Of a stretch of 64,000 bases of DNA, positions 577-57,428 are shown one piece after another; positions within the stretch are counted from its first letter, which is position 1; every line of letters starts with the position of its first letter. Source of the DNA: Candidatus Yanofskybacteria bacterium (GTDB lineage Bacteria > Patescibacteriota > Minisyncoccia > 2-02-FULL-40-12 > GWA2-44-9); NCBI GenBank assembly GCA_003151795.1, contig PLYL01000008.1, forward strand, positions 3,103 to 67,102. Direction: 5' to 3'. The translations under genes and the position numbers were made by a program. The notes below the pieces were generated by a model. It searched no databases and was not told where the DNA came from. It saw only the letters and a list, made by a program, of their open reading frames with translations.

Positions 577-3006
577 ATGCAGTCAAAGAGAATCTTTCTT
601 GTCTTTGGTTTAGGCTTTCTTTTATTTGTTTCTTTTTCTCACACCGCCAAGGCTACTCCTCTTGGGAATAATGGCGGTACCACCAGCGGTTACTATGAGG
701 TAGACGGCGATAATGAAACAAAGGATCAGACCTTTTGGTTGCCGGGTCCGGCCGGCCAGACGTTTTATTATGGCGTTAACTCCGCGGGCGATTCAAATGA
801 TCCTGGGTCAATGACGGTTGATATTTGTTTCTGGGGTACTGCGCCGGGGGCTATATTTTGTGAAACTCCAATCAGTAGCCAACCTATTGGTAACTCTTTT
901 AACGCTGGGGGATACAACCCTTACAGAATTCCCAATAGTGGAGATATTGGAGGGGGTATGGGCCTAAACGATGTTTCCTCATATCGCGTGTGGGTACATA
1001 TTTGGGTTGATAGTTCCAGTAAATACAAAACAGGGACTACGGTTACCGCATACGGCCGATATGTGGTGGCGGGGACTTTGAGCGCATCAGCCACAACTAT
1101 TTCGCCAGGTGATCCCGTAACACTTAATTTTAATGCCACTAATGGGATGAGAGGTTACGTATTTAATGTCAATACTGGACAGTATGTTTCTGATCAGCTT
1201 AGCCCTAATGGGTCATGGACAACTCATCCAAGCCAAACAACTACGTATCGCTTTGCCGTTTATGGACCAGGATTATACTGGTACGACGACTCTAGTAACT
1301 GGGTTAATACTAACGATGTAACAGTTACCGTCGCTTCTTTTGTAAACCTGAATTTTCAGGTGACGGATGGGTGTTCGGGCGGGCTGACGGCGACTCCGGC
1401 CACCATCACCCTAAACAATGATTACGGCGGAGGGACGACCACGACGGCTAATGGTTCTGGCTTCGCGACTATTTCTGTCAGTCCGAATACTAATATTGGA
1501 TGGAGTTCGGCGGTGAATGGGTATGATACCGTGGGCGGAAGTGTTAATTCCGGCAATGGGACGACCGTCAATGTGGTACAGACGCGCACCTGTGGCGGCG
1601 GCACCCCGACTCCAACACCCACACCCACCCCTTCTCCTACCCCCATAAACGCAACACCCACACCCACCCCTTCTCCTACCCCCATAAACGCAACACCCAC
1701 ACCCACCCCTTCTCCAACTCCCATAAACGCAACACCCACTCCGACACCTTCTCCAACTCCTACCTGCCAAGATTCGGCCGCCACTAACTATGGCGGGCCA
1801 TTACCATGCACCTATTCTCCAGCCCCCACTGCCCACATAACCGCCAATGGCCAAAGCGGCATTGTTTGGGTTCCGCTTTGGTCTCAACCAACAATAGCGT
1901 GGGTTTCAAACGCGGCCTCGTGCAATGTATATATCGGCACGAATCAAGGTTATGATAACACCAGTCCGTGGTCGGCGGGCCATGCCAACTATACTGCGAC
2001 TTCTCCGCCGATTGGAGGAGACACGGTATTTTTCTTGGTGTGCGATGGCGGGGCTAGTTCCGACGAGGTAACCGTGAGACCGTTGCCAGCCTCAACACCG
2101 ACGCCAACACCAGGAAGTAATTCCGGAGCGGATTCGTGCACGGTGACGGTGCAAGCCCGGCCCGGCCCGAGCGTATCATTAACGGCAAACCCGAGTACTT
2201 TAAACTGGAATAATTCCGGCTCGACGCTGAATTGGTCATCAAGCAACGCCGATGCTTGCGGTGCTTCCGTCGATTGGTCCGGCGTCAAAGCATTATCCGG
2301 TTCGCAGGGTATAGGGGCTCTGACGCCCGGAAGATACACCTACGTCCTGACCTGTTCCGGTAACGGCTCGGGTCAATCAACGGCGTACGTTACGGTCAAT
2401 TCGCCGGTGCCGACCGCTTATAGCGTGACCCATTCCGAACCGGATTATTGTTTATCCGGCCCGGGCGGCTATGTGGCTTGGTCATACTCTGACCCGTCAG
2501 GCAGTCCGCAAACCGCCTATGAAGTTAAAATCGGCGGTTATGATTCCGGAAAGTTAACTTCGTCTTCCAAGATATTCGCGATTCCGAACGGCGCCTTGAA
2601 TTTCAATAACACCTACAACGCCCAAGTCATGGTCTGGAACACCTACGACCAGCCGTCAGCATGGTCCACTCCAACCGCGAATTGGACGACCCCGCCGTAT
2701 GCCTATCCCGATGTTATCTCGCCATATCAATTCACCTGGCCGACTCCGCCTAAGCCCCAGCAGAATAAGCCGGTCCAGTTCACCGACCACACTGTGTTCG
2801 GCGCCGGCGGCAATCACTCCTGGAGCTGGAATTTCGGCGATGGCGGCACCTCGACCCAGCCGAGTCCAGCCCACACCTATACCACCATCGGCAATTATAC
2901 GGTTAATCTCATCGCTACCGACGCCGCCGGCCAGAGTTGCGGTCTTTCCCAATCTCTCAATGTTCAAAAACCCATTCCGGTCATTAAAGAAGTGGCGCCA
3001 AAATAA
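577..3006 (+). CDS. large secreted cell-surface protein: signal peptide, Pro/Thr-rich tandem repeats, C-terminal PKD-like domain
   Basis: N-term MQSKRIFLVFGLGFLLFVSFSHTAKA signal peptide; TPTPTPSPTPINA repeats; C-terminal 'WSWNFGDGGTS...YTVNLIATDAAGQS' PKD-type motif. Confidence 0.8.
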   Translation: MQSKRIFLVFGLGFLLFVSFSHTAKATPLGNNGGTTSGYYEVDGDNETKDQTFWLPGPAGQTFYYGVNSAGDSNDPGSMTVDICFWGTAPGAIFCETPISSQPIGNSFNAGGYNPYRIPNSGDIGGGMGLNDVSSYRVWVHIWVDSSSKYKTGTTVTAYGRYVVAGTLSASATTISPGDPVTLNFNATNGMRGYVFNVNTGQYVSDQLSPNGSWTTHPSQTTTYRFAVYGPGLYWYDDSSNWVNTNDVTVTVASFVNLNFQVTDGCSGGLTATPATITLNNDYGGGTTTTANGSGFATISVSPNTNIGWSSAVNGYDTVGGSVNSGNGTTVNVVQTRTCGGGTPTPTPTPTPSPTPINATPTPTPSPTPINATPTPTPSPTPINATPTPTPSPTPTCQDSAATNYGGPLPCTYSPAPTAHITANGQSGIVWVPLWSQPTIAWVSNAASCNVYIGTNQGYDNTSPWSAGHANYTATSPPIGGDTVFFLVCDGGASSDEVTVRPLPASTPTPTPGSNSGADSCTVTVQARPGPSVSLTANPSTLNWNNSGSTLNWSSSNADACGASVDWSGVKALSGSQGIGALTPGRYTYVLTCSGNGSGQSTAYVTVNSPVPTAYSVTHSEPDYCLSGPGGYVAWSYSDPSGSPQTAYEVKIGGYDSGKLTSSSKIFAIPNGALNFNNTYNAQVMVWNTYDQPSAWSTPTANWTTPPYAYPDVISPYQFTWPTPPKPQQNKPVQFTDHTVFGAGGNHSWSWNFGDGGTSTQPSPAHTYTTIGNYTVNLIATDAAGQSCGLSQSLNVQKPIPVIKEVAPK
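1612..1767 (+). repeat. tandem 39-nt repeat (~4 copies) encoding ATPTPTPSPTPIN units inside 577..3006
   Basis: direct reading: gcaacacccacacccaccccttctcctacccccataaac repeated. Confidence 0.9.
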
Positions 3007-3463: not shown

Positions 3464-4285
3464 ATGATTAAAAAATTTCTATTATTAACACTATTGGTAT
3501 TAGCAGGGTTATCTTTTTATTTTCATCATGGCGTTCAAGCGGCGGGAACCGCAACTATCACCGCCAATGGCCAAAGCGGCATTGTTTGGGTCCCGCTTTG
3601 GTCTCAACCAACAATAGCGTGGACTTCAGATGCCAGCACTTGCGATGTTTTTATCGGTACGAATCAAGGCCATGGATCAGAGCCTTGGTCCTCGGGCCAT
3701 CCCAGCTATACCGCGACTTCTCCGCCGATTGGGGCAGACACGGTATTTTTCTTGGTATGTTATACCTCGCCCGATTTCGCGAACCCGTCTAGTTCCGACG
3801 AAGTAACCGTGAGGCCTCTTCCAGCCCCCACCGCCTCCATCATCGTCAATGGCTCACATGATGTGACCACATCCGTTCCTTCTGGAACTGCCGTAGAAGT
3901 AACATGGTCTTCCAATGCCACTTACTGCCAGGTGCATCGCGGTGACGCCACAAATGACGGCCCAATTGCCTGGGAAGGTGCAAATGGTGACGTCAGTACT
4001 CCTATTACGTCATACACTAGATTTCGTTTATATTGCCAGGGTCCGAACGGTTCAGCTTTTGACCAAGCCTCGGTGGATGTGTCTGCTCCACCCGCCGTCG
4101 TTACGCATATCAGTTGTGACCCGGGTACCGTAGCATATGGCGGATCATCAAATATATCTTGGTCTTCAAGTTATGCCTCGTCATGCACGGTCTCGCCGGG
4201 CGGCTGGTCGGGAATTTCCGGCGGGCCTAACTCGACCGGCACGCTTTACTCCTCGACGACTTACACGATAAGTTGCAGCCGGTAA
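3464..4285 (+). CDS. secreted protein sharing a ~90-aa domain (near-identical at DNA level) with 577..3006
   Basis: signal peptide MIKKFLLLTLLVLAGLSFYF; segment ITANGQSGIVWVPLWSQPTIAW... shared with upstream protein. Confidence 0.75.
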   Translation: MIKKFLLLTLLVLAGLSFYFHHGVQAAGTATITANGQSGIVWVPLWSQPTIAWTSDASTCDVFIGTNQGHGSEPWSSGHPSYTATSPPIGADTVFFLVCYTSPDFANPSSSDEVTVRPLPAPTASIIVNGSHDVTTSVPSGTAVEVTWSSNATYCQVHRGDATNDGPIAWEGANGDVSTPITSYTRFRLYCQGPNGSAFDQASVDVSAPPAVVTHISCDPGTVAYGGSSNISWSSSYASSCTVSPGGWSGISGGPNSTGTLYSSTTYTISCSR

Positions 4286-5807: not shown

Positions 5808-6602
5808 ATGAACAATATAATTGAGGTCAGGAACCTCACGAAAAAATTCGATCATTCAAACGCCGTCGACGACGTGTCTTTTTCGGTGGCTGAAGGCGAG
5901 ATTTTTGCTTTTCTCGGGCCGAATGGCGCCGGCAAATCGACGGCCATCAGAATGCTGACGACCTTGCTCCACCCCACCAGCGGCACCATGGCCATCAATG
6001 GATTGGATCCCGTCCAGAAGCCCGATGCGGTTCGGCGGATGTTCGGGATTGTTTTTCAAGACCCCAGCCTGGACGATGAATTAACCGCTTGGGAAAATAT
6101 GGAATTTCACGGGATACTCTACGATATTCCCAATCCTTTGCGCCGAGACCGCATGAAGCAACTTCTTGAATTCGTCGAACTCTGGGACCGCAAAGATGAT
6201 TTAGTGAAAGAATTTTCCGGCGGGATGAAACGGCGCCTGGAAATCGCCCGGGGCCTGCTCCATCATCCGAAAATTATTTTTCTCGATGAACCGACGCTTG
6301 GCCTTGATCCGCAAACTAGAAACGGGATGTGGATGTATCTCAAAGAGCTGAATAAGAATGAAAACACGACCATTTTTTTCACCACGCACTACATGGAAGA
6401 AGCCGAGCGCATCGCCCAAAGAATCGCCATCATCGACCACGGGAAAATAATCGCTTCAGGAACATCGGAGGAATTGAAACGGCAAACGGCCACCGCTTCA
6501 CTCGAAGAAGCTTTCCTGAAGCTGACCGGAAAAACAATCCGCGACGAATCCGTTGGTTCGGCCGAGCACATGCGGACGGCCCGGCGCATGTGGCGGAGAT
6601 AG
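5808..6602 (+). CDS. ABC transporter ATP-binding protein
   Basis: Walker A GPNGAGKST, signature SGGMKRRLEIA, Walker B IFLDEPT. Confidence 0.9.
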   Translation: MNNIIEVRNLTKKFDHSNAVDDVSFSVAEGEIFAFLGPNGAGKSTAIRMLTTLLHPTSGTMAINGLDPVQKPDAVRRMFGIVFQDPSLDDELTAWENMEFHGILYDIPNPLRRDRMKQLLEFVELWDRKDDLVKEFSGGMKRRLEIARGLLHHPKIIFLDEPTLGLDPQTRNGMWMYLKELNKNENTTIFFTTHYMEEAERIAQRIAIIDHGKIIASGTSEELKRQTATASLEEAFLKLTGKTIRDESVGSAEHMRTARRMWRR

Positions 6603-16487: not shown

Positions 16488-16516
16488 TTGTTTGGCGGGT
16501 AGTAAAATGCTACAAT
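16488..16516 (+). promoter_or_regulatory. gyrB promoter (-35 ttgttt, 17 bp, -10 tacaat)
   Basis: hexamers and spacing read directly; start codon 15 nt after -10 (very short leader, no SD). Confidence 0.5.
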
Positions 16517-16531
16517 TATACAGTATAAAAC

Positions 16532-19500
16532 ATGGCTGATAAAGAGCTCAAAAAATCCGAATATACCGCCAAAGATATCCAAGTTCTTGAGGGGCTGGAA
16601 CCGGTCCGGAAACGGCCGGGGATGTATATCGGCTCGACGGGCGTCGACGGCTTGCATCACCTCATCTGGGAAGTGTTCGACAACTCGATTGACGAAGCCA
16701 TGGCCGGCCACGCCCATCATATCGAGGTTGGGCTTTTGGCCGACAACAAAGTTCGCGTCGCTGACGATGGCCGCGGCATCCCGACCGATATCCATCCTAA
16801 GACCAAAAAATCCGCCCTCGAAACCGCGGCCACGGTCTTGCATGCCGGCGGTAAATTCGAACAAGGCGCGTATAAAGTTTCCGGCGGTTTACACGGCGTC
16901 GGTTTGTCTGTTGTAAACGCGCTCTCGACCTGGATGAAAGCCGAAGTCTATCGCAAGCCGGATATCTTCGCTCAAGAATACAAAATCGGCAAACCGCAGG
17001 GGCCGGTCAAAAAAGTCGGGACCACCAAAAAGACAGGGACGACGATTACTTTCCAGCCCGACCCGACTATTTTCCCCGATACAACCTTCGACCTGCCGTA
17101 TATTCTTAATCACATTCGCCAGCAGGCCTACTTGACCAAGGGCGTTAAGATTACCGTGACTGATGCCCGTAATCCGATTATTGTCGCCGGCAAAGATGGC
17201 AACCTGCCTGCCGGCAGGCAGGGAAAACAGGAAGCGCCGTTCGATTACACGTTTTATTTCGAAGGCGGGATTATGTCGTACGTTGATTTTTTGAATCACG
17301 GCGAAGAGGTCAAAAACAAAAACATTTTTTATGTCGGTAAGGAACAGCAGGACATGTTCGTCGAAGTTTCTCTGCAGTATATCGAAGAGCTCACGAGCCG
17401 AGAATTATCTTTTGCCAACAACATCCATACGATTGAGGGCGGGACGCATCTGACTGGTTTTCGTACCGCGCTGACCAGAATTTTGAATGACTACGCGCGC
17501 AAGAACGGATTTTTGAAAGAAAAAGACGATAACTTGTCAGGCGAAGACGTCCGGGAAGGCTTGACGGTGGTGATTTCAATCAAACTTCGCGAACCTCAAT
17601 TCGAAGGCCAGACCAAAGCCAAGCTCGGTACAACCGAAGCCCGCAATGCCGTCGAGACCGTGATGACCGTTGAGTTCACGGACTGGCTGGAGCGTAATCC
17701 GAACGATGCTCGGGCGATTCTCGAAAAAGTTATCCTGGCCTCGAAAGCCCGTCTCGCGGCCAAAGCGGCTCGCGATACGGTGCTGCGCAAGGGCGCCCTG
17801 GAAGGCATGACCTTGCCGGGCAAGCTCGCCGATTGTTCCAGCCGGGATGCTTCGGAATCCGAATTGTTTATCGTCGAGGGCGACTCGGCCGGCGGATGTT
17901 TTTCGGGCGATACAAAAGTCGCTTTGCTTGATGGCAGGAACCTTTCGTTTAAGGAATTAGTAGAGGAGGACATGACTGGTAAGAAAAACTACTGCTACAC
18001 CATCAAAAATGACGGCAATGTCAGCGTGGCCCAAATTTTACATCCGCGAATTACTAAAAAGAACGCAGAAATAATAAGGGTTACTTTAGATAATAAAGAG
18101 GAAATTAGATGTACCCCAGATCATAAATTTATGTTGCGAGACGGGACTTATAAGGAAGCTCAATACCTAACAAAAAAGGATTCGTTGATGCCATTGTATA
18201 GAAGGTTGTCTAAAATCGCCGGTCGGATAACCATCAAAGGTTATGAGATGGTATATAATCCCGCCGAACATTATTGGCGGTTCACTCATGTTTTGGCGGA
18301 TCAATACAATCTTGCTCGAGATGTCTATACTCCTGAAGGTGGGGAAGCTCGGCATCACAAAGATTTTAATAAGCTGAACAACAACCCCGACAACTTGGTT
18401 CGTATGGGGAAACAAGAACATTTAATGTTTCATACGCAATGGCTTGAAAAGACAGCCCGAACACCGGAAGTATTAGAAAAACTGCGTAAGATTAGACAAA
18501 GTCCTGAATATCGCGCCAAAATAAGCCAGACCATGAAAATGCCAGCCATGCGGGCAATGCTTAGTGAACGCGCGAAGAAACAATGGGAAAATAAAGAATA
18601 TAAGGAATTTATGAATTCCAAGTTTTTAGAATTCTATAATTCCAATGAAGAATATCGAAAAACTAATAATAAACTTCTTAATAAAGCCCAAAAAACTTAT
18701 TGGGCCAGTAAAGACAATCGTCATGAACAGGCCAAGCGAGTTGCAGATTTCTTTGATAAAAATCCGGAATACCGAGCCTTGCTTTCTCAACAGGCGAAAC
18801 GGCAGTGGGACAATAAAGAGCTGGTGGCTTGGCGAAGTTTGGAGACTAAAAAACAGTGGACCCCCGAGTTCAGAGCCAAGAGAAAAGAGGCTTATAGCAA
18901 AACATACTTTACCCATACGATTAAATTTATGAAGGGTATTTTTGATCGGGATCATTTTCTTGATCAGTATGATGTCTTGAGAATTCAAAATAAAAGTCGA
19001 AATTTGTTACGAAGTGAAACATTCTGCCACAGGTTCTTTGACGACAATCCAACCGCCATGCTAGATGCGGTAAAAAACTATAACCATAAAATTAGGAAGG
19101 TAGAGAAATTAATTGAATGGACTGATGTCTATGATTTAGAAGTCTCTGGGACTCACAATTTTGCTTTGGCAAGTGGTGTCTTTGTTCACAATAGTTCCAA
19201 GCAAGCCCGTAATCGCCATACCCAAGCCATCTTGCCGTTGCGCGGGAAGATTTTGAATGTCGAAAAAGCCCGTCTCGACAAAATGCTCGCCTCGCAAGAA
19301 ATCCGCAATTTGATTATCGCTATGGGTACGGCCATCGCCGAGGAGTTTGATTTATCCAAATTGCGCTACCACAAGATTGTCATCATGACCGACGCCGACG
19401 TTGACGGCGCCCATATCCGGACATTGTTGCTCACGCTTTTCTATCGATATTTCCCGCAAGTTATCGCGGGCGGCCATTTGTATATCGCACAACCGCCGTT

Positions 19501-19933: not shown

Positions 19934-20014
19934 CAGGTTGACAGTTGATAAGCCTTTTGGTACTCTGCGGGTACGCCCTCGGGCGGTTTTTAGATAGTTT
20001 TAGCTAATCATTTT

Positions 20015-20197
20015 ATGGCAAATATTCCGCAATTTTTCCGAGAAGTCCGCGTGGAGATGTCCAAGGTGGTGTGGCCGACTAGCCGACAGCTAGTGATTTA
20101 CACGCTCGTGGTCATTGTTTTGAGCGTGCTTTTGGCCGTATTTCTGGGCGCGCTCGATTTAGGATTCCAGACGATATTAACCAAGTACATATTGTAA
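20015..20197 (+). CDS. secE: preprotein translocase subunit SecE
   Basis: 60-aa single-TM protein immediately upstream of nusG; conserved position and sequence style. Confidence 0.75.
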   Translation: MANIPQFFREVRVEMSKVVWPTSRQLVIYTLVVIVLSVLLAVFLGALDLGFQTILTKYIL

Positions 20198-20209: not shown

Positions 20210-20276
20210 ATTTATCCGCCCGAGGCGGATGAGAAGTTTGCAACTACTCACTCCGTTCGCAGGCAAACATCACATG
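20210..20276 (+). repeat. 67-bp leader repeat copy 1 (palindrome ATCCGCCcGAGGCGGAT + conserved tail ending in ATG of nusG)
   Basis: 66/67 identical to 20823..20889. Confidence 0.85.
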
Positions 20277-20819
20277 CCCAAACAAGTTGAAACAGGACAA
20301 CGCAATTGGTTCGCGATTCATACCTATGCCGGGTATGAGGATAACGTCGCGCGCAATTTAACCCAGCGGATTGAGTCGCTCGGTTTTGAAAATAAGATTT
20401 TTAATGTTTTGGTCCCGAAAGAAAAAAAGATTCGCATCAAATCCGGCAAGCGCGAGACCATCGAAGAGAAGATTTATCCGGGCTACGTCTTGGTGGAAAT
20501 GATTGTCGACGATGCTTCGTGGTATGTCGTGCGCAACACGCCCAACGTCACCGGCTTCATCGGCGCCGGGACCGTGCCGACACCGCTCGCGCCAGGCGAA
20601 GTGGAAGTTTTGCTCAAGCGCATGGGCGTGGATGAGCCGAAATACAAGATTGACGTGGCGGCGGGCGACCGAGTCAAGATTACCGACGGGCCGTTCAAAG
20701 ATTTCGACGGCAAGATTGCCGAGATTGACCCCGAGAAAGGCCGTGTTAAAGTGCTGGTGACGATTTTCGGGCGCGAGACGCCAGTCGAATTAGACTTTTT
20801 ACAGATTAAAAAATTATAA
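20274..20819 (+). CDS. nusG: transcription termination/antitermination factor NusG
   Basis: NGN and KOW domain motifs; start at ATG 20274 (MPKQ…) rather than track 20229. Confidence 0.9.
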   Translation: MPKQVETGQRNWFAIHTYAGYEDNVARNLTQRIESLGFENKIFNVLVPKEKKIRIKSGKRETIEEKIYPGYVLVEMIVDDASWYVVRNTPNVTGFIGAGTVPTPLAPGEVEVLLKRMGVDEPKYKIDVAAGDRVKITDGPFKDFDGKIAEIDPEKGRVKVLVTIFGRETPVELDFLQIKKL

Positions 20820-20822
20820 ATA

Positions 20823-20889
20823 ATTTATCCGCCAGAGGCGGATGAGAAGTTTGCAACTACTCACTCCGTTCGCAGGCAAACATCACATG
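20823..20889 (+). repeat. 67-bp leader repeat copy 2 (ends in ATG of rplK)
   Basis: 66/67 identical to 20210..20276. Confidence 0.85.
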
Positions 20890-21306
20890 GCCAAGAAAAT
20901 CAAGACAATCGTAAAGTTACAGGTTATCGCCGGTGGTTTAGAGCCGTCAAAAATCGGGCAGGCTTTGGGGCCTCATGGTTTGAATCTCCAGCAGTTCATG
21001 TCGCAGGTCAACGAAGCGACCAAAGACAAAGCCGGCCAGCAGATTCCGGTCGAGATTACGATTTATGACGACCGGACGTTCTCATTTATTTTAAAGACTC
21101 CGCCGGCCGCTTATCTTTTGCACCGAGCTGCGGGGATTGAAAAGGGTTCGGGCGTGCCCAACAAGACTAAAGTCGGCACCGTGACCAAAGCCCAAGTTAA
21201 AGAAATTGCCGAACAAAAGATGGGCGACTTGAACGCCAACGATATCAATGCCGCCGCCAAGATTATCGAAGGCACCGCCCGCTCGATGGGCATCGACGTT
21301 AAGTAG
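20887..21306 (+). CDS. rplK: 50S ribosomal protein L11
   Basis: [17 protein letters not shown]… L11 N-terminus; start ATG 20887. Confidence 0.9.
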
Positions 21307-21322
21307 ATTTTATCAAGAACTA

Positions 21323-21362
21323 CCAAATTAAAGCCCCGACTTGCGTCGGGGCTTTAATTTGG
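21323..21362. terminator. long perfect hairpin (ccaaattaaagccccgac/gtcggggctttaatttgg) after rplK
   Basis: 18-bp stem, loop ttgc; U-rich 3' arm. Confidence 0.55.
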
Positions 21363-21413
21363 TAGTATTCTCAAGGTTCGTTTATAACCTAATTTCACCG
21401 AGAGGTCAGCTTT

Positions 21414-23695: not shown

Positions 23696-25198
23696 ATGAA
23701 ATACCAGCCGGTTGTCGGACTCGAAATTCACGCGGCGGTCAAAACCAAGACCAAGATGTTTTGTGATTCGCTGAATGATCCGGATGAGAAACGGCCGAAT
23801 TGGAATGTCTGCCCGATTTGCATGGGCCATCCGGGAACGATTCCAGTTATCAACGAAGAGGCGGTCAAGAAAGTTATTATGACGGGCTTGGCTTTGAATT
23901 GTTCCATTGCGCGCGATACTTTTTTCGAGCGCAAGAACTATTTTTATCCCGATTTGCCGAAGGGCTATCAGATTTCTCAATATCAAAAACCGTTGTGTTT
24001 CGGAGGCTACTTGGAAATTAAATCCGAAGCACGAAATCCTAAATCCGAAATAAATTCGAATATAAAAAATTCAAAAAGAATAAACATTACCCGAATTCAT
24101 CTAGAGGAAGACGCGGGCCGGCTCCAGCATGACCCATCGGGAGATTTCTCTTTGGTGGACTATAATCGGGCGAGTGTCCCGCTCATGGAACTCGTGACCG
24201 AGCCAGATTTTACTAACGGAGATGATGTGCGAGCGTTCGCGGAAGAGTATCAGCTGATTTTGAAATATATCGGCGCGTCGGATGCCGATATGGAAAAAGG
24301 TCTGATGCGGGTCGAGGTCAATATTTCTCTGACTAACGCTGACGGTTCCTACGGCACCAAAGTGGAAATTAAGAATCTCAATTCTATCGCCGCCGCCGCC
24401 GCATCGGTGGATTATGAAATGGCCCGGCAGAAAGAATTGATTGAAAGCGGGGGAGAAGTGGCGGCCGAGACACGCGGGTGGGACGAAAATAAAAAGGCGA
24501 CTTTCAGCCAGCGTTCCAAAGAGGAAGCCCATGACTATCGCTATTTTCCCGAACCGGATTTGCCGCCGTTGAAAATACAGGAATTACGAAGTAGGAATAA
24601 TGAATTAGGAGAAGAAAACCGAGGAGGATTTTATATTGATGAAATCCGAGCCATGTTACCTGAACTGCCACAGGCTAGACGTGAACGATTCAAGAAGCAA
24701 TATGGTTTACCAGATGCAGATGTTGAAATATTCACGACCGATAAGGAACTGGGAAATTACTTTGAGCATGTGGTATCGGAACTCGGCGATAACAGCCTCG
24801 CTAAATTGGCCGCCAACTATCTCATCACCGAAATCAGAAAACACGGCGGAGTGGTCGGAATCAAAATTACGCCCGCCGATTTCGCGGATTTTATTAAGCG
24901 CATCGCGAAGAAGGAAATCTCTTCCTCCGGCGCGCAAACGGTATTGGAAGAAATGTTCAAAACCGGCGCTTCGCCCGAACAAATCATTAAAGAAAAAGAT
25001 TTGGGCCAAGTTTCAGATGCCGGCGCCCTGGATGCGGTAGTAGATAAGGTCCTTGCCGATAATGCCAAAGCGGTAGAAGATTACAAGAAAGGCAAGGAAG
25101 CACCGTTGAAATTCCTAATCGGCATGGCCATGCGCGAAAGCAAGGGGAAGGGGAATCCCCAAGTTTTAGAAGAGATGATTAAACAAAAGCTCTTGTAA
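23696..25198 (+). CDS. gatB: Asp/Glu-tRNA(Asn/Gln) amidotransferase subunit B
   Basis: MKYQPVVGLEIHAAVKTKTKMFC… RIHLEEDAGRL; ATG 23696 (track 23522 is an upstream extension). Confidence 0.9.
   Translation: MKYQPVVGLEIHAAVKTKTKMFCDSLNDPDEKRPNWNVCPICMGHPGTIPVINEEAVKKVIMTGLALNCSIARDTFFERKNYFYPDLPKGYQISQYQKPLCFGGYLEIKSEARNPKSEINSNIKNSKRINITRIHLEEDAGRLQHDPSGDFSLVDYNRASVPLMELVTEPDFTNGDDVRAFAEEYQLILKYIGASDADMEKGLMRVEVNISLTNADGSYGTKVEIKNLNSIAAAAASVDYEMARQKELIESGGEVAAETRGWDENKKATFSQRSKEEAHDYRYFPEPDLPPLKIQELRSRNNELGEENRGGFYIDEIRAMLPELPQARRERFKKQYGLPDADVEIFTTDKELGNYFEHVVSELGDNSLAKLAANYLITEIRKHGGVVGIKITPADFADFIKRIAKKEISSSGAQTVLEEMFKTGASPEQIIKEKDLGQVSDAGALDAVVDKVLADNAKAVEDYKKGKEAPLKFLIGMAMRESKGKGNPQVLEEMIKQKLL
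24026..24085 (+). repeat. in-frame dispersed-repeat copy inside gatB (encodes SEARNPKSEINSNIKNSK)
   Basis: cgaaatcctaaatccgaaat resembles reverse complement of intergenic element at 34483..34546. Confidence 0.4.
24581..24614 (+). repeat. in-frame dispersed-repeat copy inside gatB (encodes ELRSRNNELGEE)
   Basis: gaattacgaagtaggaataatgaattaggagaag matches miaA copy and 55132..55174 arm. Confidence 0.5.
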
Positions 25199-26168
25199 GT
25201 TTCTCGGCGTTTTTCTCGGTTTTTAGCCAGCGGATTTCTTTGTTGCGTTTGAACCAGGTCATCTGGCGTTTGGAGTATTGAATTTCAGAAAGCGTAACTA
25301 ATTTTTTTGTTTCAGTTAAAGAGGTATTTCCCTTCAGGTATTCAAGGATGATTCGATAGCCTAATCCTAAATTATGAAGTCGTTGCCAAGAAATTCCGTT
25401 TGCGCGGAGTTTTTTAACTTCGGCAATCAGACCTTGTTTGAATCGGGCCGAGAGACGAGCGGAGATTCTTTGGTCAAGATTTTTAGGATTTAAACCGAGC
25501 CAAAGGACATCGTAAGGCGATTGTTTTTTAATTTGACCAACAGGCTGGCCGGTCGCGATAACAATCTCAATTGCGCGAATCAGGCGGCGGGGATTATGGC
25601 GGTCGATGTTTTGGGCTCTTTCTGGGTCGAGCTTTTGCAATCGAGCGAATAATTGTTCCGGAGTTTGTTTCTCGAGTTTCGTGCGGAGTTTATAGTTGGG
25701 CGGTACTTCCGGCAGAGAGAAGTTGTAGATAAGCGTATCAATGTATTGTCCCGTTCCGCCGACGATAATTGGTAGTTTGTTTCTTTTTAAAATATTTTTG
25801 ATAGCGCGCTGAGCGAGCTTTTGAAATTGGGCCACGCTAAAAATCCGTTTTGGATTAGCGACATCGATGAGATGATGTCTGATTCCGTTTGAGTAGTACT
25901 CATTCCTAATTCCTAATTCATAATTCCTACTTCTGTCTTTTGAGACTTTACCCGTGCCGATGTCCATTCTACGATATACTTGGCGCGAATCAGCGGAGAT
26001 AATCTCGCCATTGAATTTTCGGGCTAACTGAATCGCCAGGTCAGATTTTCCTGACGCAGTCGGGCCCACGATTACGATTATTTTAGGCTTGCCCAGTATA
26101 TCAACATCGACCCGCCTGCGGTTTTTGGAGACTGTCGAAGTTGTATTACTGGGTTTGATTTTGACCAT
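25179..26168 (-). CDS. miaA: tRNA dimethylallyltransferase
   Basis: P-loop GPTASGKS, …ISADSRQVYRRMDIGTGK. Confidence 0.9.
   Translation of the reverse strand: MVKIKPSNTTSTVSKNRRRVDVDILGKPKIIVIVGPTASGKSDLAIQLARKFNGEIISADSRQVYRRMDIGTGKVSKDRSRNYELGIRNEYYSNGIRHHLIDVANPKRIFSVAQFQKLAQRAIKNILKRNKLPIIVGGTGQYIDTLIYNFSLPEVPPNYKLRTKLEKQTPEQLFARLQKLDPERAQNIDRHNPRRLIRAIEIVIATGQPVGQIKKQSPYDVLWLGLNPKNLDQRISARLSARFKQGLIAEVKKLRANGISWQRLHNLGLGYRIILEYLKGNTSLTETKKLVTLSEIQYSKRQMTWFKRNKEIRWLKTEKNAEKLTRAFV
25902..25934. repeat. in-frame dispersed-repeat copy inside miaA (encodes RSRNYELGIRNEYY on - strand)
   Basis: attcctaattcctaattcataattcctacttctg. Confidence 0.5.
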
Positions 26169-27252: not shown

Positions 27253-28965
27253 GAGGCTGATTTCTTCTTTCAGTTGAGCGACGGCAGTGTCTATGAGCAT
27301 GGTGCCCATGTCGCCTTGACCGTGTTTGCGGACGGCGACGGTTTGCGCGTCGACTTCTTTGTCTCCGATCACGAACAGATAGGGGATTTTTTGGGTCTCG
27401 GCGTTGCGGATTTTTTTGCCGAGGGTTTCGTTTTCGTTATGAAGCTCAACCCGGACGCCGGCATGTTTTAATTTGTGCACGACGGCTTCGGCCCAGGCTT
27501 GTTGCTTTTCGGTTATAGTAATGACGGCGACTTGGACTGGCGAAAGCCAGAGCGGAAACGCACCGGCGTAGTGTTCAATAATAATTCCAAGGAATCTCTC
27601 AAGCGAGCCATACACTACGCGATGGACAACTACTGGCGTTTTTTTATTTCCGTCTCGGTCGGTGTAATAGAGTTCAAAGCGTTTCGGTAACTGGAAGTCA
27701 AGCTGAATAGTGCCCATCTGCCATTCACGGCCAAGACAGTCCTTCATTAAGATATCTATTTTTGGCCCATAAAAGGCGGCGTCGCCTTCTGCCACGATGT
27801 ATTCTTTGCCGGATTTTTTAAGAATCTCCCTAAGTTTTTCTTCAGCTTTATCCCAAGTCGCTTTCTCTCCTAAAAATTTTTCCGGCCTCGTTCCCAGGCG
27901 GAAAGAGTATTCAAGATTGAATATGCCATAAAACTTTTTACAGATTTCAAAAATATGTTCGTATTCATCTCCGATCATTTCTTCGGAGATAAAGTTATGA
28001 GAATCGTCTTGTTGGAATGAGCGGACTCGTAAGAGGCCATTAAGCGTCCCGCTTCGTTCATAGCGATGCAAACGATCGGTATCGGACAGCCGGATCGGAA
28101 GATCTTTGTAGCTCACTTGCATGGATTTGAAGACCACCATCGCATTCGGACAATTCATCGGTTTGATGCCGTAAATTTCGTTTTCTCCCATATCCGCGAT
28201 AAACATATCGTCTTTATAATGTTCCCAATGGCCGGAAATTTTCCAAAGTTCCGCCTTATTCACAAGCGGACTCGCTATTTCTTGATATCCGAGGGCACTA
28301 TGTTCAACTCGCCAGTAATTAACGAGTTCGTTGTAAATGATAAGTCCTTTCGGTAACCAGTAGGGCATGCCGGGTGAAGTTTCATGAAACATAAAAAGGC
28401 CGAGCTGGGGTCCGAGTTTCTTGTGGTCGCGCTTCCTTGCTTCTTCGAGGAGTATTAAATGTTTCTGCAGTTCGTCTTTGGTCGCGAAGGCTAGGCCGTA
28501 AATGCGGGTGAGCTGGGGATTCTTTTCATCACCGCGCCAGTAGGCGCCGGCGAGACGCGAGAGTTTGAAGGCTTTGGGATTGAGGTCTTTGATATTCTCG
28601 ACATGACCGCCTCGGCAGAGGTCGGTGAAATTTCCCGAAGTATAGAGAGTTATTGTTTCACCTTTTTTAACCAGTTCATCAATTAATTCTTCTTTGTAAG
28701 GGTTACTGGCGAATTGTTGCTTGGCTTCATCGGCGGAAACTTCTCGGCCTTCAAAACCTTGCCATGTTTTTAAAATCTCGCGCATCTTGTCTTCAATTTT
28801 CGGGAGGTCGGTGTCCGAAACTTTTTCCGGAATATCGATGTCGTAATAGAAACCATCGTCGATGGCCGGCCCGATGGCTAATTTAGAACCGGGATATAAA
28901 TCCAAAACCGCCGCCCCGAGCAAGTGGGCGAGAGAATGGCGGATATGTTCAATAGGGGAAGCCAT
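27244..28965 (-). CDS. thrS: threonyl-tRNA synthetase (no N-terminal TGS domain)
   Basis: HSLAHLL editing-domain motif, class II core, anticodon-binding domain. Confidence 0.9.
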   Translation of the reverse strand: MASPIEHIRHSLAHLLGAAVLDLYPGSKLAIGPAIDDGFYYDIDIPEKVSDTDLPKIEDKMREILKTWQGFEGREVSADEAKQQFASNPYKEELIDELVKKGETITLYTSGNFTDLCRGGHVENIKDLNPKAFKLSRLAGAYWRGDEKNPQLTRIYGLAFATKDELQKHLILLEEARKRDHKKLGPQLGLFMFHETSPGMPYWLPKGLIIYNELVNYWRVEHSALGYQEIASPLVNKAELWKISGHWEHYKDDMFIADMGENEIYGIKPMNCPNAMVVFKSMQVSYKDLPIRLSDTDRLHRYERSGTLNGLLRVRSFQQDDSHNFISEEMIGDEYEHIFEICKKFYGIFNLEYSFRLGTRPEKFLGEKATWDKAEEKLREILKKSGKEYIVAEGDAAFYGPKIDILMKDCLGREWQMGTIQLDFQLPKRFELYYTDRDGNKKTPVVVHRVVYGSLERFLGIIIEHYAGAFPLWLSPVQVAVITITEKQQAWAEAVVHKLKHAGVRVELHNENETLGKKIRNAETQKIPYLFVIGDKEVDAQTVAVRKHGQGDMGTMLIDTAVAQLKEEISLKK

Positions 28966-28967
28966 TA

Positions 28968-29030
28968 GTAATTAGCGATTAGGACTTAGTCAATAAAGAA
29001 TAACAAATAAATTCAGTAAGTTAAAGAGCT
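28968..29030. repeat. intergenic copy of AGGACTTAG/AAGAAT-type dispersed repeat
   Basis: attaggacttag… shares core with 34483..34546. Confidence 0.35.
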
Positions 29031-34098: not shown

Positions 34099-34257
34099 GC
34101 TACTCCATCTATAAATTCTGTAAATACATAGATGGGTGATTTAATTTGCAAAAGAAATCTTTTTGTGGTATCATCTTCAAGTAGTTAATATTAGTTGTTG
34201 GCGATTGGATTTTAGAGATTTATCTAAGTTCTAATGGCTAATTACTGAATTCTATCC

Positions 34258-34482: not shown

Positions 34483-34546
34483 AATTTAGGACTCAGGATT
34501 TAGGACTTAGATTTGACTAAGTTCTAACTTCTAAGTTCTAACTCCT
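34483..34546. repeat. intergenic inverted-repeat element (TAGGACT/TAGAACT units)
   Basis: left taggactcaggatttaggacttag vs right ctaagttctaacttctaagttctaa. Confidence 0.55.
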
Positions 34547-35074: not shown

Positions 35075-35084
35075 TAATTTAATA

Positions 35085-35151
35085 GAATTAAGAGTTAAGA
35101 ATTACGAATTAAGATTTTCAATCTTACTTCTTAATTCTTACTTCGTACTTC
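35085..35151. repeat. intergenic inverted-repeat element (AAGAATTA units)
   Basis: gaattaagagttaagaattacgaattaaga … tcttacttcttaattcttacttcgtacttc. Confidence 0.6.
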
Positions 35152-35160
35152 TTTGTGAAT

Positions 35161-44399: not shown

Positions 44400-46745
44400 C
44401 TAGGATTCTTTAGATGAAGTGTCAATGACAGCGATTTCCCCACTAGTAGAATCTTCAATGGCCTTCGGCTTTTTGGGAGTTGAAAATTCACTACCCGGCT
44501 TAGGCTTTCCATATTTTTTAGCAGGTTTAACTGGTTTTGATTTCCATATTACCAATGCTTCCTGCAGTTCGGCTTCGCTTTCGGGTTTCTTGCCCATCAG
44601 GAAGGTACAATCGGGCCAGCGGGAACAGGCATAAAAGAGTTTACCACGGCCGCGGGATTTTTTCTCCACAACATCGCCAGTCAGACAGTTCGGGCATTTG
44701 AATCCGGTCTTGTTGAAGATTTTGGAAATACCCTTACATTTAGGATAATCGACACAACCGAGGAAATAGCCGAAGCGCCCGCGGATTACTTTCATGGGTT
44801 TGCCGCAGATAGGGCACATTTCGCCTTTGGTTTTTTCTTCCAGTTCTTTTATTTTGGCGGCTTCTTCGGGCATAGGAAGCGAAACTTTGCTCCCAGGTTC
44901 GGGACAGGCGAGGAATTTACCGTTGCGTCCGAATTTAACGAGCATCATTTTACCGCAGTGCGGGCAAGGCGTAGTCGATTCGACGATTAGTTTTTCGACG
45001 AGTTCCGTTTTTTCTTTTAAGTTCTTGGCGAAAGGCGCGTAGAATTCTTCCACCACCGGCACCCATTTAATTTTGCCTTCGGCAATATCATCAAACTCTT
45101 CTTCAATGTGCGAGGTGAAATTTATGTCGATGACTTCTGGGAAGTTCTCAACGAGCATGTCGTTGACCGAAAAGCCAATTTCGGTGGGTTTATATTTCTT
45201 GTCTTCTTTTTCGACGTAGCCGCGGTCCTGAATCGTGGTGAGGGTCGGCGCATAGGTCGAAGGACGGCCGACGCCCGCGGCTTCAAGGGTTTTAATGAGC
45301 GAGGCGTCGGTGTATCTGGGCGGCGGTTCGGTGAAGTGCTGGTCTTTGGCGAGCTTAATCAGATTTAATAATTCTTTTTGGGACAATTCCGGAAGTTGGC
45401 CGTCTTCGTATGAGTCTTCTTCAGTCTTTTCGTCGTCTTCTTTGGTTTCGGTATAGGCGCGGATGAAGCCGTCAAATTTAACCGCTTGGCCGTTGGCGCG
45501 GAAGGTGTATTTTCTTGATTCTTGATTCTTGCTTCGTGCTTCTATATCCGCGGCGGTTTGGTCGAGAATGGCAACCTGCATCTGGCAGGCGATGGTCCGT
45601 TTCCAGATCAAGTCATAGAGGCGGAGCTGGCCGGAATCCAAATCTTTGTCGAGACTGTCGGGCAAGCGGGATAAATCGGTGGGCCGGACGGCTTCGTGAG
45701 CTTCCTGGGCGCCTTTGGATTTGTTGAGGAATGAGCGGGGCGCGTCGAGGCAATATTCCTTGCCAAATTGTTTCTTGATGACTTCTTGGGCTTGAGCCAG
45801 GGCAATTTCCGAGATATGCAAACTGTCGGTGCGCATGTAGGTAATCATGCCGGTTTCGTATAATCTCTGGGCCAAGGTCATGGTCTGTTTGGCGGAGAAG
45901 CCGAGTTTCTTGGCTGCTTCTTGCTGGAGAGTGGAAGTCGTAAATGGCGCGGGCGGGGTCCGTTTGACTTCTTTTTTCACGACGTCGATGACTTTATATT
46001 CGGCGCCGACTAATTCGTCGGTAATTTTTTTAGCGTCGGCTGGATTTTTAATGCCCAATCGGTCGATTGATTCTTCGCCCCCGCCTGGCCGGCCGGCAGG
46101 GATTTTGACGAGCCGAGCTTTGAAAGTCTTGTCCTCGTCTTTTTTAGAAAGGTCGGCTTCGACGGACCAGTATTCTTGGGGCGTGAATTTTAGGATTTCG
46201 CGTTCGCGCTCCACGACGAGGCGGACGGCGACGCTTTGGACGCGGCCCGCGGAAAGGCCGGAGCGGATTTTTTTCCACAGGAAGGGCGAGAGTTTGTAAC
46301 CGACGAGGCGGTCGATGATGCGCCGGGCCTGTTGGGCGTCGACGAGATTCTGGTCGAGCTGGCGGGGATGAGCGATGGCTTTTTCAATCGCGGGTTTGGT
46401 AATTTCATGGAAGACGACGCGTTCGGTCTTGCCGGCCGTGGTTTTCTTATCCAGGCCGAGGGCGTGGGCGAGATGCCAGGCGATGGCTTCGCCTTCGCGG
46501 TCCGGGTCGGTGGCGAGAATCACCATGTCGGCTTTGGCCGCCGCGGTTTTGAGTTCGCTGACAATCTTCTTGGCTTTTGTCGGAATAATATATTCAGGTT
46601 TGAAATCGTGGGCGATATCGATGCCGATGCCTTTCTTGGGTAAGTCGCGGATATGGCCGAAAGAGGATTTAACGACAAAATCGCCGCCGAGGAAGCGGGA
46701 GATGGTTTTAGCTTTGGTTGGGGATTCGACGATTATTAACTGCAT
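44400..46745 (-). CDS. topA: DNA topoisomerase I
   Basis: Toprim N-terminus, catalytic core, three C-terminal zinc ribbons, Lys-rich tail. Confidence 0.95.
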   Translation of the reverse strand: MQLIIVESPTKAKTISRFLGGDFVVKSSFGHIRDLPKKGIGIDIAHDFKPEYIIPTKAKKIVSELKTAAAKADMVILATDPDREGEAIAWHLAHALGLDKKTTAGKTERVVFHEITKPAIEKAIAHPRQLDQNLVDAQQARRIIDRLVGYKLSPFLWKKIRSGLSAGRVQSVAVRLVVEREREILKFTPQEYWSVEADLSKKDEDKTFKARLVKIPAGRPGGGEESIDRLGIKNPADAKKITDELVGAEYKVIDVVKKEVKRTPPAPFTTSTLQQEAAKKLGFSAKQTMTLAQRLYETGMITYMRTDSLHISEIALAQAQEVIKKQFGKEYCLDAPRSFLNKSKGAQEAHEAVRPTDLSRLPDSLDKDLDSGQLRLYDLIWKRTIACQMQVAILDQTAADIEARSKNQESRKYTFRANGQAVKFDGFIRAYTETKEDDEKTEEDSYEDGQLPELSQKELLNLIKLAKDQHFTEPPPRYTDASLIKTLEAAGVGRPSTYAPTLTTIQDRGYVEKEDKKYKPTEIGFSVNDMLVENFPEVIDINFTSHIEEEFDDIAEGKIKWVPVVEEFYAPFAKNLKEKTELVEKLIVESTTPCPHCGKMMLVKFGRNGKFLACPEPGSKVSLPMPEEAAKIKELEEKTKGEMCPICGKPMKVIRGRFGYFLGCVDYPKCKGISKIFNKTGFKCPNCLTGDVVEKKSRGRGKLFYACSRWPDCTFLMGKKPESEAELQEALVIWKSKPVKPAKKYGKPKPGSEFSTPKKPKAIEDSTSGEIAVIDTSSKES
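45514..45542. repeat. in-frame dispersed-repeat copy inside topA (encodes EARSKNQESRK on - strand)
   Basis: cttgattcttgattcttgcttcgtgcttc. Confidence 0.45.
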
Positions 46746-55059: not shown

Positions 55060-55063
55060 CCTA

Positions 55064-55174
55064 GAAGCAAGAATATAGAGTTAAGAATTAAGCGGGATTG
55101 AATGCTGAGCTATAAATTGGTAGCTTTGTTTCGTGCTTGATCTTAATTCTTGATTCGTAATTCCTACTTCTTCC
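55064..55174. repeat. intergenic inverted-repeat element of AAGAATTA family (arms 55064-55096 and 55132-55174)
   Basis: gaagcaagaatatagagttaagaattaagcggg … cgtgcttgatcttaattcttgattcgtaattcctacttcttcc. Confidence 0.6.
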
Positions 55175-55176
55175 TT

Positions 55177-57380: not shown

Positions 57381-57428
57381 GCGAACCATCCACAGGCCTC
57401 ACCGATACTTTAGGGGTATAATTAGGCC

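Follow-up and report, generated by a model that had tools for sequence, protein, structure and literature searches.

A probably functional RNA leader repeated before nusG and rplK in a Candidatus Yanofskybacteria bacterium, and a possible switch at translation initiation

Two leader copies and their history among relatives

How the synthesis of ribosomal protein L11 is controlled in bacteria of the candidate phyla radiation (CPR) without L1 is the question on which the present locus bears. In E. coli and many other bacteria across phyla, the rplK-rplA operon has an L1-interacting leader, with dual sites in Firmicutes (PMC3616713, PMC10931766), and the OD1-L1 Parcubacteria are reported to be without L1 altogether (PMC5220378). 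Leaders of nusG are essentially undescribed anywhere, and our literature search for nusG or rplK leaders in CPR bacteria found no report. Herein we analyse a stretch of 64,000 nucleotides (nt) of contig PLYL01000008.1, called the window below, from an uncultivated groundwater bacterium that is Yanofskybacteria-like (Parcubacteria) and whose lineage presumably belongs to OD1-L1; the NusG homologues of the window protein bear the Yanofskybacteria name. In the window, a 67-nt element precedes both nusG and rplK, the gene of L11. This element is very probably a functional, selected, cis-acting RNA leader that was copied from nusG to rplK: compact and strongly conserved, it has the layout of an overlapping-helix switch, has moved between nusG and rplK, and has relatives before secE and gyrB. 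Loci of about 90 relatives, numbered with L below, serve for comparison, and the features first needed are as follows.

20015-20197, + strand: secE, 60 amino acids (aa), from the open reading frame (ORF) list, with the SecE Pfam match on the relatives' orthologous gene
20210-20276, + strand: leader copy 1, before nusG, 67 nt including the ATG
20274-20819, + strand: nusG, true start 20274 (MPKQVETGQ...), from the residue-1 alignment with relatives
20823-20889, + strand: leader copy 2, before rplK, with its ATG at 20887-20889
20887-21306, + strand: rplK (L11), true start 20887 (MAKKIKT...), rplA not next to it

The two copies, each of 67 nt with the ATG included, are identical at 66 positions at an offset of +613, and the ATG that closes each of them is residue 1 of NusG or L11 in the alignment with about 90 relatives. 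The sole mismatch, C20221 in copy 1 against A20834 in copy 2, is the first loop base of a hairpin with a 7-bp stem and a 3-nt loop (ATCCGCC-NGA-GGCGGAT, at 20214-20230 and 20827-20843), and the 46-nt tail, again with the ATG, shows no differences between the copies. In these particulars, namely a near-identical direct repeat of 67 bp ending at both starts, a single differing base, a palindrome and a conserved tail, the original prediction made from the letters of the window holds. Its statement that each copy begins right after the upstream stop codon has to be corrected, as copy 1 lies 13 nt past the secE stop (TAA at 20195-20197, followed by a second in-frame TAA) and copy 2 lies 3 nt past the nusG stop (20817-20819).

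A search for more copies, proposed at the same time, gave none beyond these two: within the 64 kb no third copy was found at up to 3 mismatches, an unfiltered covariance-model search of the window returned no further members, and 100 shuffles of the sequence gave 0 matches to the repeat. Among 185,579 GTDB species-representative genomes there is 1 exact match, in a metagenome-assembled genome of Candidatus Yanofskybacteria. The repeat is not an assembly artefact, because the same arrangement is seen in an independent 952-bp contig of the Joint Genome Institute (L001). Spread over many loci and absence from close relatives had been named beforehand as findings that would speak against a regulatory element; the repeat is not generic, and it is indeed patchy among relatives.

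The comparison with relatives carries the claim of function. Between the window and L002, whose NusG is 96% identical, identity at four-fold sites is only 0.44 in nusG, 0.38 in rplK and 0.45 in secE, which is effectively saturated, while the leader matches the nusG leader of L002 at 65 of 68 positions. L096 represents, together with L097-L099, the closest lineage, known from four assemblies; here 57.5% of the four-fold sites agree with the window, and 61 of 61 leader positions from ATCCGCC to ATG are identical. Judged by such comparisons, the element is shown to be under strong purifying selection. Moreover, its helices are conserved and its changes compensatory, as described below, and the earlier proposal of a cis element at the RNA level is borne out by this and by a conservation far above that of synonymous sites.

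The two positions do not share one history. In L096-L099, L002 and L090 the element stands before nusG only (the contig of L090 ends ahead of rplK), and the rplK leader of L096-L099 and L002 is a long AT-rich hairpin of low complexity; in L083 the element stands before rplK only; in L088 merely its last 10 nt (CGAACAUCAC) are found before nusG; and in L084, L086 and L092 the leader is absent or different. A joint feature of nusG and rplK, as first supposed, is therefore not what the relatives have. Since the nearest relatives have the nusG copy only, the element is ancestral at nusG and the rplK copy of the window is a lineage-specific duplication. The loop AGA of copy 2 is common to L096, L083, L090 and L088, copy 1 having CGA; on this distribution AGA is the ancestral loop and CGA the derived one, and the nusG leader has been copied before rplK recently, displacing the leader type seen in the nearest relatives. 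L093 was rejected as evidence of leader transfer. This contig is about 100% L002-like through the leader to the nusG start and 99% L004-like from position 4751 on, the two parts meeting at the 5' end of nusG or just within the gene, and it is uninformative because it is either a natural recombinant or an assembly chimera.

Such a distribution could also be produced by a selfish or neutral repeat, namely a small mobile palindrome, or a local duplication or gene conversion that happened by chance and does nothing for the host. The patchiness in close relatives, the variety of genes served, the occasional inversion and the near-identical copies in diverged genomes are what such a repeat would give. 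However, there are just 2 copies in 64 kb and 1 exact match in the GTDB species representatives, neither terminal inverted repeats nor target duplications are found, the window, L096-L099, L002 and L090 all have the element at the orthologous place before nusG, its register to start codons is fixed and the changes are compensatory, so that we regard this explanation as very improbable.

Paired leaders are not confined to the window. Considering 19 non-redundant genomes in which both spacers are at least 40 nt long, the secE-nusG and nusG-rplK spacers are similar to each other in 6 (the window, L007, L011, L012, L033 and L042), against 7 of 342 comparisons between genomes, and these six span four or five unrelated sequence families. 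The contrast of the two counts indicates that the same leader has been placed on both genes repeatedly. As such pairs arose repeatedly in other lineages, a coordinated regulation of nusG and rplK by the shared element, which the original prediction had suggested, becomes more plausible.

Overlapping helices and a possible switch

In order, the element reads ATCCGCC, NGA and GGCGGAT (hairpin P1), the linker GAGAA, then GTTTGC, AA, CTAC, TCACTCCGTTC, GCAG and GCAAAC (hairpin P2), and finally ATCAC and the ATG. It can be divided into four segments, AUCCGCC (seg1), GGCGGAUGAGAAGUU (seg2), AACUACUCACUCCGUU (seg3) and GCAGGCAAAC (seg4), which fill the 60 nt before each ATG. The helices that they allow are three in number and mutually exclusive, namely P1 (1:2), P2 (3:4) and an alternative hairpin (2:3), located as follows.

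20214-20230, + strand: P1 of copy 1, with ATCCGCC at 20214-20220, loop CGA and GGCGGAT at 20224-20230; the ATG at 20229-20231 is a false start
20224-20257, + strand: 2:3 hairpin of copy 1, GGCGGATGAGAAGTT (20224-20238) with AACTACTCACTCCGTT (20242-20257)
20236-20268, + strand: P2 (3:4) of copy 1, its 3' arm ending 5 nt before the ATG
20827-20843, + strand: P1 of copy 2, loop AGA
20837-20870, + strand: 2:3 hairpin of copy 2
20849-20881, + strand: P2 of copy 2

The predicted energy is about -13 kcal/mol for P1, -7.1 kcal/mol (z -2.4) for P2, on which our covariance model R1 scores 44 bits, and -13.3 kcal/mol (z -3.0) for the 2:3 hairpin formed by GGCGGAUGAGAAGUU with AACUACUCACUCCGUU, which excludes both of the others. 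In the five sequences of the N type both conformers are 92-95% paired, against 31-47% with slid partners, and the 2:3 pairing alone is 94.7% paired in 5 relatives, against 35-47%. The changes within this type are few: the P1 loop base (C, A or G), an extra bulge A, a C to U that mends an A.C mismatch, and a pair swap in P1 of L090, where AUCCGCC/GGCGGAU has become ACCCGCC/GGCGGGU (U-A to C-G; L088 has G.U). All substitutions in seg2 and seg3 retain the 2:3 pairs, by G-C to G.U, by A-U to G.U, or by an inserted G that pairs the bulged C. In L083 an inserted G together with an A to U yields a perfect 16-bp 2:3 stem (-25.8 kcal/mol, z -6.5), with P1 and the inner P2 stem, P2b, decayed. As read from the aligned leaders, the few changes are structure-neutral or compensatory, and the invariance of loop and linker can be understood because these bases serve overlapping helices and thus do double duty. 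A further helix, between CGGAGU ahead of copy 1 and the P2 loop, was rejected as it is found in copy 1 only.

Because three overlapping conserved helices within 60 nt are the layout of a two-state leader, we favour, as a tentative statement that falls somewhat short of an even chance when taken as a whole with the switch mechanism included, a selected cis-acting 5' leader, copied to rplK, that changes its conformation to control translation initiation; the switching itself, its trigger and translation as its output are what we infer. With seg1 free, P1 and P2 together (about -20 kcal/mol) would beat the 2:3 hairpin (-13 kcal/mol), and P2 would lie on the ribosome landing site. With seg1 occupied or unwound, seg2 would capture seg3, as the 2:3 hairpin is predicted to beat P2 alone (-7 kcal/mol), P2 would dissolve and the start region would become single-stranded. 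The occupant of seg1 or P1 might be a ribosome terminating on the preceding cistron or another factor, and the translation of each gene would be tied to that of the preceding gene or to that factor. In fact seg1 lies 6-9 nt past the upstream stop in the rplK copy of the window (7 nt) and in the nusG leaders of L002 and L090, and when the 16 nt from the upstream stop, the approximate reach of a terminating ribosome, are masked in silico, the minimum-energy folds of the rplK copy and of L002 flip from P1 and P2 to the 2:3 hairpin.

Several results weigh against such a switch. Under the same masking the fold of L090 changes with P2 staying in place, and the nusG copy of the window keeps P1; a terminating ribosome would not reach seg1 there, because it starts 16 nt after the stop. 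P2 is weak: the cost of opening positions -15 to +5 at nusG and rplK is 6.3-6.4 kcal/mol, mid-rank among 43 window genes, and the gain of accessibility on masking seg1 is modest, from 0.55 to 0.67. A simple sequestration of the start codon was in fact rejected, the opening energy of the start region being ordinary. In L083 the 2:3 hairpin dominates outright, and for that reason no switch is expected there; in L088 a related cassette follows a promoter, in the 5' untranslated region of gyrB, with no upstream cistron. The power of covariation is low because the N type is represented by only five sequences, which are 94% identical, and the P2b pair 39-53 is unpaired in 4 of the 5. The leader is dispensable, as several close relatives have none at nusG or have another. 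Finally, over the wider family described below, complementarity of seg2 and seg3 is not significant (mean z -0.98), and for this reason a 2:3 switch common to the whole family was rejected and the switch may be specific to the N type.

The same leader could instead be a static operator for a common trans-acting RNA-binding repressor, be it a Nus factor, L11 in place of the lost feedback by L1, or some other protein, which would recognise P1, the linker and P2 beside the start codon, block the 30S subunit and control nusG and rplK together. Near-total conservation reaching even unpaired bases, a hairpin that carries a bulge of 2 nt and lies 5 nt from the AUG, the occurrence of the family before several housekeeping genes, the precedent of Firmicutes, in which both rplK and rplA are preceded by an L1 site (PMC3616713), and a clade without rplA adjoining rplK would all suit an operator. 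However, in local alignment with the 16S, 23S and 5S rRNA of E. coli the best scores of the leaders are within the shuffle range, the invariance of the loops is equally explained by the 2:3 pairing, and close relatives do without the leader or have exchanged it for another; we consider an operator possible, yet unlikely. A module of RNA processing or stability, in which cleavage by RNase III or E, or protection of the upstream mRNA at its 3' end and of the downstream mRNA at its 5' end, uncouples the amounts of SecE, NusG and L11, seems improbable. Each spacer has two stable hairpins, most long spacers of the relatives also have large hairpins, though unrelated in sequence, and inverted family hairpins occur in secE leaders, from which some family members would work in either orientation. 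Simple structures, however, need not conserve each loop and linker base across saturated synonymous divergence, and a register fixed at 0-5 nt to the start codon points to initiation. Behind the operator come, in order of falling likelihood, the processing module, a transcriptional attenuator or BoxA site, the selfish repeat and a coding extension.

The coding extension stands in public annotation, where NusG starts at the ATG at 20229 (a 196-aa NusG), which like that at 20842 sits in the 3' arm of P1 in frame with its gene. It would be real if NusG and L11 shared a 15-aa extension or if it opened a regulatory upstream ORF. GAGG stands 3 nt before it in both copies, about 50 nt before the true ATG and within the P1 loop and 3' arm, and AUG, GUG or UUG is retained at its position family-wide (GUG in L083 and L090). 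On the other hand, one extra A in the bulge (L002/L082, L083) puts it out of frame with nusG and rplK intact, its frame varies among K-type (rplK-type) members, 181-aa NusG homologues all begin with MPKQ, a 3-nt spacing is too short for a Shine-Dalgarno (SD) sequence, and the conserved U and G are accounted for by the closing pair of P1. A real upstream start is hardly credible on this evidence: because a 1-nt indel breaks the frame in relatives, the in-frame position is accidental and the annotated extension of 15 residues is an artefact, just as had been proposed, the extended ORFs (from 20229 and 20842) being present as such in the window. A handful of public NusG proteins of 192-232 aa show similar over-extensions through other leaders, and the correction thus concerns false N-terminal extensions of 12-50 aa in NusG and L11 that recur in public CPR genomes.

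That neither true start has an SD sequence also proves correct, with none within 15 nt of either ATG. This absence is not special to nusG and rplK, because most genes of the window have none, and some have promoters 6-15 nt before the ATG. As to the genes of the window elsewhere, strong SD sequences are seen in a few only (22127, 26831), and -10 boxes near starts include TATAAT 6 nt before the ATG at 57429 (57409-57431) and TACAAT 15 nt before the gyrB ATG (16495-16534); such close boxes suggest, by their sequence, leaderless or very short-leader mRNAs.

Known systems and the wider leader family

Considering its likeness to known systems, the element is grouped with cis-regulatory mRNA leaders. 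Ribosome-driven leaders of alternative hairpins include the trp-type attenuator (1:2 and 3:4 against 2:3) and the structure-mediated translational coupling of E. coli rpmI-rplT and of the MS2 coat and replicase genes. Like these, the element consists of four consecutive segments with mutually exclusive 1:2, 2:3 and 3:4 pairings, its first segment within reach of a ribosome on the preceding frame and its last helix at the regulated site. Unlike them, it has no leader peptide of conserved frame and its predicted occlusion of the start site is weak; the sole upstream start lies past seg1 in a frame that is not conserved, and the preceding cistron would have to stand in for the leader peptide. Nor is the 3:4 hairpin a terminator as in the trp attenuator, with AUCACAUG behind it and no U tract. 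By analogy, the element would work most like the ribosome-driven leaders of alternative hairpins, minus leader peptide and terminator. As an easily synthesised RNA of 60 nt, it offers a direct object for studying coupling, or a new RNA-protein or RNA-rRNA feedback.

The L1-interacting leader resembles it in being a short bulged mRNA hairpin just upstream of rplK that can occur twice per cluster and presumably acts at translation initiation. An L1 site has a stem of 6-12 bp with an internal bulge that holds a potential G-A pair and then an unpaired A (PMC3616713), whereas the P2 bulge of the window is AA (AAA in L002 and L083), on the 5' strand only, without G and with nothing unpaired opposite, and the ancestral place of the element is nusG, not rplK. 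That rplA is not beside rplK, as noted at the outset, is true of the clade, since rplA follows rplK only in L070, L072 and L078, the three most distant of about 90 loci; within the window, rplK is followed by tmk-like, thyX and dcd genes, with no L1 gene in the unit. As for mimicry of 23S helices 76-78, local alignment of the leader with E. coli 23S rRNA is no better than that of shuffled leaders, and mimicry of rRNA for L11, L1 or the anti-SD was rejected likewise against E. coli 16S, 23S and 5S. The lack of an L1 gene in the unit, a bulge unlike that of an L1 site and the lack of rRNA mimicry are the three grounds on which an L1-interacting leader was rejected. Rfam, scanned at gathering thresholds with the window and 14 loci and at E<=10 with the region, gave no match on the repeat; Rfam 15 has no rplK leader match even on that of E. 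coli itself, and its negatives say nothing on an L1 leader. A riboswitch of known class was rejected, with no Rfam match and no room for an aptamer in 60 nt of simple hairpins.

A transcription-level element, with P1 as a weak or factor-dependent terminator-attenuator or with a BoxA-like NusB/NusE site that autoregulates nusG, has been weighed as well. The consensus GYTCTTTAANA is used for autoregulation of suhB and nusE, and the study reports no nusG case (PMC5725501). Like the BoxA sites of suhB, nusE and nusB (PMC5725501), the element is short, conserved and within 50 nt of the start of a Nus-factor gene, and in its 200-nt relatives the 3' half of P2, GCUCUUGAACA, matches the consensus at 10 of 11 positions. 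Moreover, the extended P1 of the K type (GGGC-U-P1-GCUC) is followed by AUUUUU (-20.8 kcal/mol, z -3.7). In the window, however, the best match, GTTCGCAGGCA, reaches 6/11 (7/11 in L002) and is base-paired in the P2 loop and 3' arm, by a consensus that is gamma-proteobacterial and may not be the host's, and BoxA-like words are about 2-fold enriched overall, mostly in terminator tails; an identity of the element with BoxA was rejected on the contrast of 10/11 in the relatives' cassettes and 6/11 in the window. Though P1 resembles an intrinsic terminator as a GC-rich 7-bp hairpin shortly past a stop codon, it is followed by GAGAAGUUUG, with GAGAAGTTTG in place of a terminator tail and conservation running to the next start codon, and the terminator scan of the + strand called nothing at either copy. 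The first hairpin is thus not a terminator, because no U tract stands behind it, and the termination signal offered earlier as one option falls away. No sigma-70-like hexamer pair is present within the element, the only promoter-like site being inside nusG (20725-20752). Altogether an action on transcription is quite improbable.

As side observations, BoxA-like words (GTTCTTTAACA and variants) are found directly after terminators and 10-20 nt before a downstream SD and ATG, several of these belonging to the tmk-like gene (L051 2743, L053 4122, L058 4125, L062 4236, L064 3036, L028 5101, L036 4105, L039 4099); the counterpart of this spot in the window is GGTTCGTTTATAACC (about 21370-21390).

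Elements of the repetitive extragenic palindromic or miniature inverted-repeat transposable type are intergenic palindromic repeats with many copies per genome at unrelated sites. The element is alike in being a short, imperfect, bulged palindrome that is repeated, intergenic and patchy between strains; it differs in having two copies in 64 kb, a fixed position and orientation to start codons and orthologous conservation under selection, and in lacking terminal repeats or target duplications.

The tail of the element turned out to be a divergent member of a wider family, whose motif comprises P2a of 6-8 bp, with a 3' arm that overlaps the start codon or lies 0-5 nt away from it, a bulge of 2 nt, P2b of 4 bp and a loop of about 11 nt, UCRCUNCGYUC. 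An alignment of nine P2 sequences, whose structure was derived by hand from the same nine and on which the model R1 was built, is 93.5% paired against 33-49% with slid partners, with compensatory change at 9 of 12 pairs. R1 matches rplK leaders in L003, L005, L011, L033, L045, L052, L062 and L088, nusG leaders in L011 and L033, the secE leader of L067, the gyrB leader of L088 (directly after a TTGATT-17-TATAAT promoter, with no upstream cistron), and in L028 a site before a deaminase-like gene where the copy carries the first codons of rplK. Forward members thus adjoin the start codons of nusG, rplK, secE, gyrB and a deaminase-like gene, and inverted family hairpins stand in the secE leaders of L005, L006, L035, L036-L038 and L094. 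The K type has the same P1, GUCCGCC-AGA-GGCGGAU in L088. Leaders of about 200 nt, called class A, have an inserted domain of 115 nt within the P1 loop, and RNAalifold on these relatives recovers a long-range P1 and P2 independently of the hand alignment. Between genomes with a synonymous identity of 24-48% the leader families are 76-94% identical, and Rfam has no match for any of them.

The same spacers expose at least three further uncatalogued structured RNA families. Class A leaders (L011 2804-3003 and 3547-3755; L033 2806-3003 and 3547-3748; L045 1487-1689; L052 3547-3744; L062 3547-3749) stand before rplK and sometimes nusG. A long-range helix of 16 bp closes them, their inner stem shows compensatory changes, and the start-codon hairpin of the family follows; they are 76-83% conserved where synonymous sites are saturated, gave no match in an Rfam scan of the 200-nt sequences, and have the look of a cassette whose P1 loop has taken up a sensor domain. 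Class B, of 130-170 nt, runs through UAGAACGCAG, GAGGCAAAAGCGAG, GAGCCAUA, UAUGGCGAG, GGAGCUUUUAACGAA and CAAGUUAUAA to the AUG and precedes nusG, rplK or a gene of 97 aa that lies upstream of secE (L003 2805-3000; L012 2834-3000 and 3547-3718; L013 3547-3710; L028 2810-3000; L035 2159-2329; L042 2085-2185; short forms in L086 and L092), and has no Rfam match. Among the L1-less relatives, rplK is most commonly led by a simple hairpin with a GCUUCU loop 20-27 nt before the ATG (nusG-rplK spacers of L006, L024, L036-L039, L050, L063, L071, L084, L086 and L095), which the rplK of the window does not have. Of 47 spacers, 11 contain GCTTCT, where about 1.5 occurrences would be expected, and its reverse complement occurs once. 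The loop, (C/U)UGCUUCU(A/G), is a 7-8-nt exact complement of the loop of 23S helix 43, UAGAAGCA, the L11 and thiostrepton site; the complementarity is strand- and position-specific, and may be a coincidence.

A wider scheme, improbable in our estimate, would have portable leader cassettes replace the lost L1 feedback in L1-less Parcubacteria by reading the state of the ribosome through RNA-RNA pairing, so that the GCUUCU loop could sense L11-free rRNA and nusG, rplK, secE and gyrB would form a small post-transcriptional regulon. The cassette of the window would then be a derivative in which an internal helix-43-like GAGAAG (seg2) pairs with CU(A/U)CUC of seg3 in cis, and in the 200-nt versions a sensor domain would have been added within the P1 loop.

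Limits of the unit and other features of the window

The flanks of secE-nusG-rplK hold the following features.

17897-19192: intein of 432 aa in gyrB, which lies upstream of secE in the locus order
19938-19966, + strand: promoter-like TTGACA-17-TACTCT, beginning 5 nt past the gyrB stop
19974-19992, + strand: hairpin CGCCCTCGGGCG followed by GTTTTTA, directly after the promoter-like site and upstream of secE
21320-21365, no strand assigned: long perfect hairpin after rplK, with only TATTCTC after the stem on the + side

The region 19938-19992 is likely to be the upstream limit of the secE-nusG-rplK transcript. The hairpin CGCCCTCGGGCG, which is kept in L002, L036, L083, L090 and L093, may be a gyrB terminator overlapped by the secE promoter, an attenuator in the secE leader, or both. 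At the other end, the hairpin at 21320-21365, scored by the terminator scan on the - strand only, is probably the end of the transcription unit, and the genes after it are, in order, tmk-like, thyX, dcd and gatB.

Among the minor observations, the gyrB intein (CFSGDTK...VFVHN|S) is present in L088 and L093 (Pfam Intein_splicing) and missing in L092 and L094. In the large ORF 577-3006 there are 39-bp tandem repeats (1574-1760), and a 260-bp segment of the same ORF (1837-2096) is 84-88% identical to 3557-3831 in ORF 3464-4285. In L072, an insertion of about 111 nt in the 5' domain of 23S (5955-6051 vs 6340-6450) is 84% identical to sequence just upstream of 23S. Moreover, many intergenic spacers of the window hold AT-rich quasi-periodic words (AAGAATTAAGA, TTAGGACTTAG and similar), often as imperfect inverted pairs, at 24581-24610, 25888-25942, 28965-28989, 34191-34215, 34486-34510, 35084-35152, 45513-45543, 55063-55179, 57574-57620 and 63723-63752, and the equivalent spacers of relatives, for example in L007, L018, L021, L022, L028 and L002, each have a word vocabulary of their own.

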